From Anaerolineae bacterium (GTDB lineage: Bacteria; Chloroflexota; Anaerolineae; B4-G1), in the NCBI GenBank assembly GCA_046760785.1, contig JBHIET010000027.1, forward strand, positions 1 through 32,000: a DNA stretch of 32,000 nt, in the 5' to 3' direction. A program made the translations under genes and the position numbers. Shown here piece by piece: positions 138-8,850 of the stretch. The notes beneath the pieces were generated by a model, which saw nothing but the letters and a program-made list of their open reading frames with translations, did no database searches and was not told where the DNA came from. Within the stretch, counting starts at the first letter, position 1. Each line of letters opens with the position of its first letter.

Positions 138-1814
138 TTAGCCCAGGTAGCCAAGGTCGCTCAGTCGTTCCAATATTTCTTCTTCCTCACTTGGCGACAG
201 CGTGTCAATTCCCAACATTGAATCCGATGGGCTCCACTTGTAGGTGGAAACTGGGCGGCTGACCAGCGACGGAGAAAGCCACTCCTGTAGCACCCGACCA
301 TCCATCCATTCAGGCACAGCGCAGCCCAGCACATGCAGCACTGTCGGTGCAATATCCCCTAGCCAGGCAGCGGGACGCTCTTCTGTCGCCTGGGTGATGC
401 CGGGGCCGGCGGCAATAAGGATGCCGTCCAACCGATGTCCTCCCGACTCATGAATGCGCGAAGCGCAAAATATCTCACCTGGTTGATTACCAAACTCATA
501 CCCCTGGCGGGTAATATAGGCCAGATCGCGCATCGTTATGACTAGGTCAGGGGCGTGGACAAGATTAGGACCGTGGTAGATATCCTCTCCTTTATTAATT
601 CTATCTACCACGGGCTTGCCATCTGCCGGATCGACTAATTCCTTCAAGACCTGACATAATTCATCGCGCAAAGCCTCGTACTCACTTCCTGGTGCGACAA
701 TACCCTGGGGTTCCCGCCCGGCTAAGTTGATGTAAATCTGCCCCTGGTAGCCGAAGCTATAGGCACGGGTGCGTGACCAATCGATTCCTTCGCCAAAATC
801 GGTCCACCCCGTGCGGGGTAGCAGCTTGATACGATCTCCCAGCAAGTCCTTGATAATCCGCTCCACACGACCCAGGTGCGCCCATCGTAAGAAACGTGAG
901 ACGTTGCTGCGCGTGAGGCCAGCGCGAGCCAGGAACTGACGTAGAGGTGGAGGTGACTGGGAGATCAGATAGCCTTGTTGGCGCAACCATTCGTTCAGAA
1001 ACACGTCTTTATACAATGGTCCAGAGCCATGATCGGACGCGATGAATACTGTGGTCTCAGGTCCAGCAGTGGCGATTAACTCACCCAAGTGACTATCTAT
1101 CCGCTGGTAGAATTCTAGGATAACATCCCGATAGGCAGCAGAGCGTACGGGGTCATAGTCAGGGTGGGATGAATCCATATGACGCCAGAAAATGTGAGAT
1201 ACCTCATCGGTACCCCGATAGACAATCATGAAGAAATCCCAAAGCTCCTCAGCCAACAGAGATAGGGCGGCGGAAGTAAGGCGGTCGGTGATTTCGTAAA
1301 TGTCGTGCAAGAAGGTATCCTCATTGTCCAGGTAGCTATATACCCGGCGGTTGACCCGGTAGCCATTCCGTAAGAGCCGGTCGCTCAATTCAGGCGGATA
1401 AGTGAAGCTCTTGAAATTGGGTGTGCCCAATCCGCTGGTGAGAAAGCCGTTGACAGGCTCAGGCGGATAGGTCATAGGAACGTTCATTACTCCCACACGT
1501 CTCTCCTGCTCGCTCAGCAGTTTCCAGAGTGAGGGAGCACGGATGTGATAGCGAGTCACCGGGCGCAGCCGATAGCTATCCGGTTCTCGATACGTAAAGT
1601 CAAACACCCCGTGTTTGCCAGGGTTTGTCCCGGTCATGAAAGTTGACCAGGCTGCTGCCGACACTACAGGTAAGACAGACCGTAATCGGCCATATCTTCC
1701 CCTCTCCATCAGACTGCCCAACACAGGTAGATGACCAGCTCGTGCCCATGGTTCGATCAGATCTAGTGTCGCTCCATCCAGGCCAATGACCATCACACGT
1801 GAAACAGTTGACAT
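138..1814 (-). CDS. Alkaline-phosphatase superfamily enzyme, type I phosphodiesterase/nucleotide pyrophosphatase (NPP)-like, paralogue 1; apparently cytoplasmic
   Basis: The ORF spans 138..1841. I prefer the internal ATG at 1814 (MSTVSRVMVIGLDG...) because AGGAGA lies about 7 nt upstream and it sits 4 nt after the upstream TAG stop (1819-1821). NPP/AlkP bimetal-site motifs are all present: VIGLDGAT, PVVSAAAWSTFMTG (Ser at the nucleophile position), TDEVSH, ASDHGSG, GGHRLDG. There is no signal peptide or TM segment. It is homologous along its full length to the 7135..8850 product. Confidence 0.8.
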   Translation of the reverse strand: MSTVSRVMVIGLDGATLDLIEPWARAGHLPVLGSLMERGRYGRLRSVLPVVSAAAWSTFMTGTNPGKHGVFDFTYREPDSYRLRPVTRYHIRAPSLWKLLSEQERRVGVMNVPMTYPPEPVNGFLTSGLGTPNFKSFTYPPELSDRLLRNGYRVNRRVYSYLDNEDTFLHDIYEITDRLTSAALSLLAEELWDFFMIVYRGTDEVSHIFWRHMDSSHPDYDPVRSAAYRDVILEFYQRIDSHLGELIATAGPETTVFIASDHGSGPLYKDVFLNEWLRQQGYLISQSPPPLRQFLARAGLTRSNVSRFLRWAHLGRVERIIKDLLGDRIKLLPRTGWTDFGEGIDWSRTRAYSFGYQGQIYINLAGREPQGIVAPGSEYEALRDELCQVLKELVDPADGKPVVDRINKGEDIYHGPNLVHAPDLVITMRDLAYITRQGYEFGNQPGEIFCASRIHESGGHRLDGILIAAGPGITQATEERPAAWLGDIAPTVLHVLGCAVPEWMDGRVLQEWLSPSLVSRPVSTYKWSPSDSMLGIDTLSPSEEEEILERLSDLGYLG

Positions 1815-1818
1815 CGCT

Positions 1819-7138: not shown

Positions 7139-8850
7139 AAGTACCCCAGATCCTGTAGGTGCTGAGAAATCTTGGTCTCTTCTTCAGGTGTATAGGCGAA
7201 CTCACTGCCTGGAGATGAGATGCCCGAAGGTGATATGGAATCTGATACTATGCTCTCAATTGCACCGTTGACGAATGCCTTATGAAGCACTACGCCATCC
7301 ATATATCTGGGGATAGGCAAACCCAGGACTCCCAATATGGTAGGTGTCAGGTCTAACAAGCGTGCTCCTTCGACGCGTGCCCCAGGTCGGACGCCCGGCC
7401 CGTTGACGATCAAGATACCCTCCAGGCGGTGAGAGCCAGTCAGTGGCATATCGCTGAAGTCGAAACGTCTTCGGGTTTCAAAGACGGGCGCCCCTTGGCT
7501 ATCGTAACGCCCCCGCCCCCAGAAAGCGTAGTCCTTCCATTCAACGACCAGGTCTGGTGCTTGGTCAAGAAACGGCCCGTCGTACAACTCCTCGCGCCGG
7601 TAGACGCGCCGCACGATGGGTCGTCCTGTCTCCGGGTCCAACAGGGTCGTGAGGGCGTCGGCAATCTCTTGGCACAACTGCTCGTACTCGCTCCCCGGCT
7701 GAACGATTCCGGCTGGCTCTCGCCCCTTGAGGTTAATGAAGATGTTACCACCTGCGCCCAACACGTAAGCCCGTGTCTGATCCCAGGCGACGGATGAGGT
7801 AAGTAGAGCCGATTCAAAGTCTCCCTTGACCCGAGCAAAGCGACGAGCGCCCAGTCTGACTCGAACCGCCGCCCGCGTCTTGGTCGGCACATAGCGGCGA
7901 TAGGCTTGAGCCAGTAGTTTGATCCCGGCGGCCCGGAGCTGTCTCAGGGAGCTGGCGCTACCCGTGCGAAACTGCAGATATCCAGCCCCGGCCAGCCAGC
8001 GGTTCAGATTGATCATGCACCGGAACGGCCCAAAGCCGTGATCCGACATAACGATGATGACCGTTTCACGTTCTTGGTCATCGGCGGCAATCTGTGCCAT
8101 CATAGCCCCAATGGCCTGGTCAACTCTCTGGTATACGTCGCGTATCACGTGACGATGGCGCGCTGCTGGGCTGCCTTCGGGGGCATCCTGGCAATGCCAG
8201 TAGGCGTGCTGAGCGTCGTCAATGACTCTAAAGACAACAGCGAACAGATCCCACGTCTCGGTTTGCAGGAGATACAGACTCAAGCGCTCGCGCAGCTCAA
8301 CCGCATGCAAGAGCTTGCCGGCGAAGGCAGTCATCGGGTCGGCGACGTGGGAGTCGTAGTCAGGGATGATGAAATAGTCCGGCACGACCTTTTTGAACTC
8401 GTCAAAGTACGTTGGCGGGAAAACCAGATCACGGGTGACGGTTGGTGCAAAAGGGCCTCCAATCATCACACCGTTGACAGGGCACGGAGGAAAGGTATGG
8501 GGAACATTGACGCTGATGACCCGGCAATCTAGCTGGCTAGCAATCTCAAATATAGTTGGAACACTGATATGCGAAGCATTGGTTACCTCGAGGTTATACC
8601 CACCGGGCCGCCGACGCACGAAATCATAGAGGCCATGTTTGCCCTGGTTGACGCCGGTCATAAACGTAACCCAGGCCGGCGCTGTGGTTGGCTGTAGAGT
8701 GGACGCCAAATACCCACGACAGCCCTCAGACATCAGACGAGATAGATTGGGTAGATGGCCTTCTGCTGCCCACGGTTCAATCAAGTCGAAGGTCCCGCCA
8801 TCCAGTCCGATAACCAGTACTCGCTTTTGTGCTGCCGTCACAGTAATCAC
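7135..8850 (-). CDS. Alkaline-phosphatase superfamily enzyme, NPP-like, paralogue 2; apparently cytoplasmic
   Basis: Motifs present: VIGLDGGT, QPTTAPAWVTFMTG (Thr at the nucleophile position), IDDAQH, MSDHGFG, TGSHRLEG. There is no signal peptide or TM segment. The start is ambiguous. The ORF opens with GTG at 8850, but the GTG at 8841 has GGGAG 8 nt upstream and gives an N-terminus co-linear with paralogue 1. Confidence 0.8.
   Translation of the reverse strand: MITVTAAQKRVLVIGLDGGTFDLIEPWAAEGHLPNLSRLMSEGCRGYLASTLQPTTAPAWVTFMTGVNQGKHGLYDFVRRRPGGYNLEVTNASHISVPTIFEIASQLDCRVISVNVPHTFPPCPVNGVMIGGPFAPTVTRDLVFPPTYFDEFKKVVPDYFIIPDYDSHVADPMTAFAGKLLHAVELRERLSLYLLQTETWDLFAVVFRVIDDAQHAYWHCQDAPEGSPAARHRHVIRDVYQRVDQAIGAMMAQIAADDQERETVIIVMSDHGFGPFRCMINLNRWLAGAGYLQFRTGSASSLRQLRAAGIKLLAQAYRRYVPTKTRAAVRVRLGARRFARVKGDFESALLTSSVAWDQTRAYVLGAGGNIFINLKGREPAGIVQPGSEYEQLCQEIADALTTLLDPETGRPIVRRVYRREELYDGPFLDQAPDLVVEWKDYAFWGRGRYDSQGAPVFETRRRFDFSDMPLTGSHRLEGILIVNGPGVRPGARVEGARLLDLTPTILGVLGLPIPRYMDGVVLHKAFVNGAIESIVSDSISPSGISSPGSEFAYTPEEETKISQHLQDLGYL

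Follow-up and report, generated by a model that had tools for sequence, protein, structure and literature searches.

Within the first 32 kb of contig C27, a stretch of 32,000 nucleotides that we call the window, an uncultured Anaerolineae bacterium (assembly of 3.5 Mb in 188 contigs, 86% complete) carries an operon in which two enzymes of the alkaline phosphatase (AlkP) superfamily, termed copy A and copy B, bracket genes for glycan assembly. Genomic context leads us to propose that copies A and B are glycan sulfotransferases of the NPP fold that act at the cytoplasmic face of the membrane, a proposal to which we give an even chance of being correct. Both proteins have the fold, an intact active site and a place in the operon, the cassette is conserved among relatives, and the family as a whole is linked, and in some genomes fused, to genes for sulfate activation. 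We favour sulfation because of this linkage and fusion to sat (ATP sulfurylase) and cysC (adenosine 5′-phosphosulfate (APS) kinase), because the family co-occurs with Sat, and because no canonical sulfotransferase was seen in the annotated cassettes of relatives or in the scanned genes of the window. Copies A and B constitute an uncharacterised subfamily of PF01663 whose best-supported role is glycan sulfation.

Copies A and B are NPP-fold paralogues with an intact active site

Copies A and B align as full-length paralogues with 38% identity over 577 columns (BLASTP, E 2e-110), which agrees with the one third to 40% that an earlier, sequence-only reading of this DNA had estimated by eye over the N-terminal ~280 aa for the products of 138..1814 and 7135..8850. 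Both score far above the gathering cut-off (23 bits) of the Pfam profile hidden Markov model PF01663 (Phosphodiest), with 139 bits for copy A and 146.6 bits for copy B. PF00884 gives a borderline local match in copy B (25.5 against a cut-off of 25) and none in copy A. The profile search that the sequence-only reading had proposed therefore came out in favour of PF01663, with no match to the Metalloenzyme family.

In an alignment of 58 family sequences, D17, D211, D270, H271 and H474 do not vary, H215 is kept in 54 and Asn115 in 53, and the column of the nucleophile is occupied only by Thr (34/58) or Ser (24/58). The nucleophile of copy B is T56 in the context PTTAPAW, and that of copy A is a Ser in PVVSAAAW. 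On alignment to Xac NPP, residues D17, T56 and D270-H271 fall on the NPP ligand positions. As far as sequence can tell, both copies carry the bimetal ligands, the Thr/Ser nucleophile and the Asn of PF01663, so that the metal-ligand motifs and nucleophile noted earlier are indeed intact. By fold, profile score and active-site residues, copies A and B belong to PF01663.

An AlphaFold2 model of copy B (mean pLDDT 90.2, pTM 0.91) has as its best Foldseek matches Xac NPP, ENPP1/3/5/6/7 and PhnA (E about 1e-16, target-normalised TM-score 0.64-0.71, 12-16% identity). No phosphoglycerate mutase or phosphopentomutase chain is among the 50 Protein Data Bank (PDB) matches listed; of the structures that had been suggested for comparison, NPP and PhnA were recovered and phosphopentomutase was not. 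Copies A and B are about 190 residues longer than NPP. In the copy B model the extra length (about residues 290-470) consists of a helical stretch at about 300-350 and a beta-rich insertion at about 360-470. The C-terminus is a poorly ordered acidic linker followed by a short helix at 555-567, with pLDDT of about 55-63.

Three other assignments were considered and rejected. An S1 formylglycine sulfatase would need a C/S-x-P-x-R motif at the nucleophile, which is missing. A mutase of the PF01676 type (Metalloenzyme; cofactor-independent phosphoglycerate mutase/phosphopentomutase) gave no match at E <= 0.01. An LtaS/EptA-type membrane phosphotransferase has an N-terminal membrane domain, which these proteins lack, their catalytic Asp lying at about residue 14-17. 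Neither copy matches the canonical sulfotransferase domains PF00685 and PF13469.

These results bear on the idea that the enzymes are nucleotide or nucleotide-sugar pyrophosphatases that relieve product inhibition of glycosyltransferases (GTs), or phosphomutases acting on a sugar phosphate precursor. The COG label of their relatives, given below, points in this direction, as does the binding of UDP-GlcNAc by ENPP3; PDB 6f30 is among the fold matches. The lack of any Pfam Metalloenzyme match speaks against a mutase, and neither activity would explain the paired paralogues, the C-terminal tail or the linkage to sulfate activation, which makes this a very improbable account.

With respect to location, no stretch of 19 residues resembles a transmembrane segment: the hydropathy maxima are 1.28 and 1.45 for the two AlkP copies versus 2.8 in the neighbouring Wzx. 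The median position of the first metal-ligand Asp across 255 homologues is residue 14, too close to the N-terminus for a signal peptide to fit. A cytoplasmic location of copies A and B is well supported by these predictions, in keeping with the earlier view that both lack a signal peptide and a transmembrane helix.

No NCBIfam model names either copy, and no solved structure is close to them in sequence. Relatives are labelled only ‘predicted AlkP superfamily phosphohydrolase/phosphomutase’ (COG3379) or ‘alkaline phosphatase family protein’. A literature search recovered no paper on the COG3379 family and no characterised member, and a search on 3′-phosphoadenosine 5′-phosphosulfate (PAPS) sulfotransferases of the alkaline phosphatase superfamily found nothing relevant.

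The glycan cassette is conserved in relatives

Seven genes run from 8850 to 138, all on the minus strand, in the order AlkP copy B, family 2 glycosyltransferase (GT2), family 4 glycosyltransferase (GT4), Fcl-like, methyltransferase (MTase), Wzx and AlkP copy A. Intergenic gaps of at most 39 nt indicate a tight operon. The TGA of copy B overlaps the GTG of the GT2 gene as GTGA, and the 4 nt gap between Wzx and copy A is likewise as first described. The order of the flanked genes and the operon were also read correctly; the identification of the fourth gene as fcl was not sustained, since its product, a short-chain dehydrogenase/reductase, scores 300.6 bits against the NF047922 GDP-L-fucose synthase equivalog, whose cut-off is 500, and is only Fcl-like.

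The AlkP family comprises 5,470 clusters at 50% identity (E <= 1e-30). Of the 301 Chloroflexota genomes sampled, 83 encode it, mostly with 2-4 copies each, and a locus search with a 9-sequence alignment of the family also found it in metagenome-assembled genomes (MAGs) labelled Desulfobacterales, Planctomycetota, Eisenbacteria, Sumerlaeota, Nitrospirae, Elusimicrobia, Halanaerobiales and Heimdallarchaeota. The cassette recurs in many Chloroflexota, with a B type upstream of GT2 and an A type downstream of MTase-Wzx. In other genomes, too, B-type orthologues (53-83% identity) precede GT2, which is kept directly downstream of them. The best-conserved cassette gene is that for the MTase (50-68% identity), which adjoins Wzx in relatives, and A-type orthologues (40-62% identity) come after Wzx, itself conserved immediately upstream. 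GT4 is found in some orthologous cassettes only (L007, L068 and L069). The linkage to GT genes is thus conserved and extends to the MTase and Wzx, and nothing that the sequence-only reading had named as speaking against it (a signal peptide or lipid anchor, lost metal ligands, a characterised subfamily, no conserved GT linkage) was found.

Glycan clusters carry 2-4 AlkP paralogues, and this is the pattern of position-specific tailoring enzymes. It could also be asked whether the tailoring group is a phosphate derivative, in which case the enzymes would add a phospho-substituent to the lipid-linked intermediate, or remove one (phosphoglycerol, phosphocholine or phosphoethanolamine from a CDP donor, or a sugar-1-phosphate diester), by the covalent phospho-Thr chemistry of LtaS, EptA and NPP. 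An NPP fold with a Thr/Ser nucleophile is suited to phosphodiester transfer, and the enzymes are placed in a glycan operon upstream of the flippase. No CDP-donor or phospho-donor gene is present among the scanned window open reading frames (ORFs), and no synthesis gene for a CDP-alcohol or other phospho-donor was seen in the window or in the annotated related cassettes. Such a role would also leave unexplained the sat fusions, the sat/cysC adjacency and the co-occurrence described below, and we judge it distinctly unlikely.

A search of family representatives revealed two composite proteins. P0121 (1104 aa) has two complete AlkP domains in tandem, with an LGY tail on the second only, and P0159 (862 aa) has an AlkP domain followed by an MTase domain similar to the cassette MTase.

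In many relatives a secreted protein of about 485 aa follows the A-type enzyme (for example L005:15193-16650, L006:14966-16435 and L007:16241-17698), with homologues in L040, L071, L136 and L143. It has a signal peptide, no Pfam match and a Ser/Thr/Asn/Gly-rich composition, with four repeats around a Q-N-V/A-S/G motif that contain N-x-S/T sequons. This protein may be a surface protein that receives the glycan. No homologue was found in the assembly studied here, in which the contig ends 137 nt after copy A, just where the gene would be expected.

The family is linked to sulfate activation

Contig C123 of this genome encodes a third paralogue, which is 504 aa long, lacks the C-terminal tail and is 28-30% identical to copies A and B; its start codon abuts the stop codon of the ATP sulfurylase gene. 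At this locus (G000:C123:2574-5290, L146) Sat is 401 aa long, and genes for a divergently transcribed RecJ-like protein and an M23 peptidase lie on either side of the pair. In two Chloroflexota genomes, sat and the short AlkP form are a single ORF of 881 aa (L060:1654-4296) or 863 aa (L061:1934-4522).

Long forms show the same association. Cassettes orthologous to that of the window run on the same strand into the secreted repeat protein and then sat-cysC (L071, L136, L143, L069) or face sat-cysC divergently (L067/L005, L139). A-type enzymes that are 50-52% identical to copy A adjoin sat-cysC-cysC in three Ardenticatenaceae MAGs (L112, L138, L140), and in another family long tail-bearing forms abut sat (L053, L054, L056). 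In L143:14234-16646, and also in L112, L138 and L139, Sat carries a C-terminal APS-kinase-like domain (598 aa in all), and a free-standing APS kinase (187 aa) comes next. The block with these tandem kinase-type domains adjoins the A-type enzyme and, in several Chloroflexia, lies near prmC and sua5.

Among the 301 Chloroflexota genomes, Sat is encoded in 57 of the 61 with a strong AlkP-family match versus 86 of the 240 others, a comparison in which the Fisher P overstates the association and is indicative only, the genomes being related rather than independent. The AlkP family and sat lie within about 3 kb of each other in 30 genomes from 11 GTDB families. The Sat-less exceptions served as a falsification test: three of the four have a good APS kinase, and CysD adjoins it in G210 and G026. 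No canonical sulfotransferase domain is present in the annotated cassettes L005-L007 and L143 or in the 20 window ORFs scanned. The L143 cassette combines sat, cysC and one A-type enzyme and has no other candidate transferase.

This linkage would also suit accessory hydrolases of a sulfation pathway, which might remove 3′-phosphoadenosine 5′-phosphate (PAP) as a 3′-phosphatase, hydrolyse pyrophosphate or surplus APS/PAPS, or pull or regulate activation, with an unrecognised protein performing the transfer. Hydrolysis of phosphoester and pyrophosphate bonds in nucleotides is what NPP and AlkP enzymes do, and NPP, ENPP and PhnA are the nearest structural matches. The sat-fused or sat-adjacent short form (C type) would fit as a reaction-pulling partner of ATP sulfurylase, and fits better than copies A and B do. 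A housekeeping enzyme would need neither 2-4 diverged paralogues per cluster nor position-specific orthologues beside GT2 and Wzx, and in L143 no other protein is available as the transferase. We therefore regard hydrolysis as an unlikely function for the window pair and retain glycan sulfation as the preferred one. The roles offered by the sequence-only reading, namely phospho-substituent transfer or removal, hydrolysis of NDP or NDP-sugar, and a mutase reaction, fare worse here, as none explains why the family is time and again linked or fused to ATP sulfurylase and APS kinase.

Sulfate activation and a second glycan cluster in this genome

The genome encodes both Sat (C123) and APS kinase (C36), on separate contigs. 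In this 86% complete assembly we found neither PAPS/APS reductase (PF01507) nor sulfite reductase (PF01077), and for that reason activated sulfate is probably made for sulfation rather than assimilation, an argument weakened by the gaps in the assembly. A direct joining of the window contig to C123 through the conserved secreted protein was considered and rejected, as a RecJ-like gene lies upstream of sat and no homologue of the secreted protein was found in the assembly.

A second glycan cluster (G000:C23:17000-33000, L149) consists of three GT4 genes, an MTase gene, a GT4 gene, Wzx, a canonical sulfotransferase and further GT4 genes. The sulfotransferase (285 aa, PF13469/PF00685) is the sole match of its kind in the genome, and its gene directly follows Wzx, the slot held by copy A in the window cassette. 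At least one glycan of this organism is thus probably sulfated in the conventional way.

A shared C-terminal tail

Copies A and B both end in an acidic stretch and LxxLGYL. This ending, which the sequence-only reading had picked out as an acidic stretch plus DLGYL(G), is present as an acidic stretch and LxxLGY in 237 of 261 long-form homologues, and is missing from the sat-linked short form. A loose form of the tail pattern matches 9 of the 6,940 long ORFs in the genome. The extended form (T-P-E-E/D ... I..HL..LGY) occurs in three ORFs only, namely those of copy A, copy B and a DUF2061 protein on contig C17.

The DUF2061 protein (G000:C17:21349-21714) is 122 aa long from the first in-frame Met and has the tail LTPEDKEILLEHLRQLGYVD; its homologues, 98 aa in length, have their start 24 residues further on. 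Of 20 metagenomic homologues, seven were read and all seven conserve the tail. Hydrophobic stretches, judged by eye, are consistent with two transmembrane helices, a topology that, if correct, would put the tail in the cytoplasm in the AlkP and DUF2061 families alike. DUF2061 is rare in Chloroflexota (2/301 genomes), and the surroundings of the gene are housekeeping (YceG, MtaB-like, HIT, CBS) rather than related to sulfation. CysD was examined as a further bearer of the tail and rejected: in two genomes it ends in ...DRKRQGYF or ...DRKREGYF, and only the terminal GY-aromatic is alike. The LxxLGY helix looks like a portable docking helix, and is probably an arm that binds a partner subunit or a membrane partner rather than a catalytic element.

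Comparison with known systems

The only AlkP-superfamily enzymes for which glycan sulfation is known to date are two sulfatase-like proteins of archaea. In Halobacterium salinarum, the AlkP-superfamily proteins Agl30 (VNG1056C), which is membrane-associated, and Agl31 (VNG1057C), which is soluble, sulfate different sugars of a dolichol-phosphate-bound N-glycan, as was demonstrated genetically when the genes were deleted or were expressed in Haloferax volcanii (Zaretsky et al. 2025, PMC11980604). That paper does not deal with the sulfate donor or the mechanism. The premise of the sequence-only reading that AlkP-superfamily enzymes of envelope glycans all act outside the membrane is out of date, given Agl30 and Agl31 (PMC11980604).

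Agl30/Agl31 and the window pair have in common the superfamily, paired genes in a glycan-assembly cluster, a methylated glycan (predicted in the case of the window) and, in Agl31, a soluble cytosolic protein. Agl30 and Agl31 act on the completed lipid-linked oligosaccharide, each on one sugar, and we propose the same for copies A and B. The archaeal proteins differ in using dolichol phosphate and in being sulfatase-like (arylsulfatase family, closest structures S1 sulfatases) rather than PF01663/NPP-like; compared by published description, the two sets are probably different families of one superfamily. Of the traits of the Agl30/Agl31 type, the window pair has the AlkP-superfamily fold, the lack of an export signal and the gene place in a lipid-linked glycan cluster. 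Coupling to sulfate activation holds for the family and for the same-genome paralogue, not within the window.

Sulfation of a lipid-linked hexose in Haloferax volcanii requires Agl7 (HVO_2046), whose gene lies at the edge of a cluster with the flippase candidate Agl15 and deoxyhexose synthesis genes (PMC3892788). Agl7 resembles the window pair in gene neighbourhood and in the role that we propose for the pair.

The NPPs (Xanthomonas NPP, ENPP1/3/5/6/7) and PhnA share with the window pair the Pfam family, core fold, bimetal ligands, Thr position and Asn. Copies A and B are distinguished by their extra length and LGY tail, by being cytoplasmic rather than secreted, and by their place in glycan operons linked to sat/cysC. 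NPPs are hydrolases. The membrane enzymes of the LtaS, EptA, OpgB and BcsG type resemble the window pair in moving a group onto envelope glycans by covalent Thr/Ser catalysis, and differ in their N-terminal membrane domains, extracytoplasmic catalytic domain and lipid donors; copies A and B have no transmembrane segment. Canonical PAPS sulfotransferases (PF00685, PF13469) share the proposed reaction and, on C23, the operon slot after Wzx, and differ in having an unrelated P-loop-like fold, no metal and direct in-line transfer.

Proposed mechanism and its weaknesses

In the sulfation scheme that we favour, the GTs would assemble an oligosaccharide with deoxyhexose on a polyprenyl carrier, on the cytoplasmic side of the membrane, the MTase would methylate the lipid-linked glycan, and copies A and B would each sulfate a different hydroxyl of it before flipping. 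The sulfuryl donor would be PAPS or APS, supplied by the Sat and CysC encoded elsewhere in the genome. Transfer may be ping-pong, in which a Thr/Ser alkoxide at the bimetal site attacks sulfur, PAP or AMP leaves, and the sulfo-enzyme hands the sulfuryl group to the sugar. Wzx would flip the product, which outer-face GT-C enzymes encoded upstream may then use. We infer the sulfo-Thr/Ser chemistry because the AlkP superfamily is known for promiscuity between phosphoryl and sulfuryl transfer and because the active site is conserved.

Several points weigh against this scheme. The sulfate donor, the acceptor and the mechanism are its inferred parts, and we know of no NPP-type Thr/Ser enzyme that performs efficient sulfuryl transfer. 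The window itself contains no sat or cysC, the contig terminating 137 nt beyond copy A. In 70 of 80 species-level loci, neither sat nor cysC was detected within 10 kb by a panel that is blind to CysDN. The link to sat comes from relatives and from a paralogue that is distant from the window pair (28-30% identity), and the sat-fused C type, which is short and has no LGY tail, forms a clade apart from A and B and may have another job. Since sat-cysC lies beside prmC-sua5 in several Chloroflexia, part of the sat-AlkP adjacency could be conserved synteny, and the relatedness of the sampled genomes inflates the association with Sat. Finally, the canonical sulfotransferase on C23 already gives the PAPS pathway a client in this genome.

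Gene starts and neighbouring features

The copy A ORF spans 138..1841. An AGGAGA sequence lies 7 nt upstream of the ATG at 1814, which is 4 nt past the Wzx stop codon and is predicted to be the true start, as is most likely. For copy B the longest ORF begins at the GTG at 8850, right behind a GGGAG sequence, and a second, properly spaced GTG at 8841 gives a protein of 568 aa, the length of the cluster representative P0001; the GTG at 8841 is most likely the start, to judge from these signals. A scan of positions 1..9100 for promoters and terminators found no signal above shuffled expectation. The GT-C glycosyltransferase gene upstream of the cassette (Table 1), a homologue of which precedes the cassette in L069 and L139, may provide an outer-face step.

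Table 1. Genes of the glycan cassette and its upstream neighbour in the window.
Feature	Coordinates	Strand	Description
AlkP copy B	7135..8850	-	568-571 aa NPP-fold enzyme, Thr56 nucleophile, tail EEETKISQHLQDLGYL; first cassette gene
Family 2 glycosyltransferase (GT2)	6176..7138	-	PF00535, E 3.9e-23
Family 4 (GT-B) glycosyltransferase (GT4)	5007..6176	-	PF13692, PF13579, PF00534
Fcl-like NAD-dependent epimerase/reductase (6-deoxyhexose synthesis)	4081..5016	-	PF01370, E 6e-59
Class I S-adenosylmethionine (SAM) methyltransferase	3280..4041	-	PF08241, PF13489
Wzx/MOP-family lipid-linked glycan flippase	1819..3276	-	PF13440; NF041871 Wzx_EPS below cut-off
AlkP copy A	138..1814	-	558 aa NPP-fold enzyme, Ser nucleophile, tail EEEEILERLSDLGYLG; last gene before contig end
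PMT_2-type GT-C membrane glycosyltransferase	8924..10588	-	PF13231, E 5.5e-20; recurrent neighbour upstream of cassette

Implications

A wider proposal is more tentative, and we place it somewhat short of an even chance. The long forms of COG3379/PF01663, in bacteria and in some archaea, may be glycan sulfotransferases that together make up a large class so far overlooked. With a bimetal site of the NPP type and a covalently bound sulfo-Thr/Ser intermediate, they would modify lipid-linked glycans before flipping. They might be coupled to partners by the portable LxxLGY helix that is also found on the DUF2061 two-transmembrane protein, with the sat-fused short form as the entry enzyme of the pathway.

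To our knowledge, addition of sulfate to a glycan has not yet been shown for an NPP fold in bacteria, and predictions of glycan sulfation in bacteria at present depend entirely on canonical PAPS sulfotransferase domains. The sulfation reading would surprise specialists if true, and it is directly testable. Copies A and B would then be a bacterial counterpart to archaeal Agl30/Agl31, and the AlkP superfamily would gain a branch with a Thr/Ser nucleophile that performs efficient sulfuryl transfer, which bears on the promiscuity between phosphoryl and sulfuryl transfer. Sulfated surface glycans shape the interactions of microbes with phages, hosts and minerals, and if the proposal holds, annotation would have missed the sulfated products of thousands of glycan clusters.

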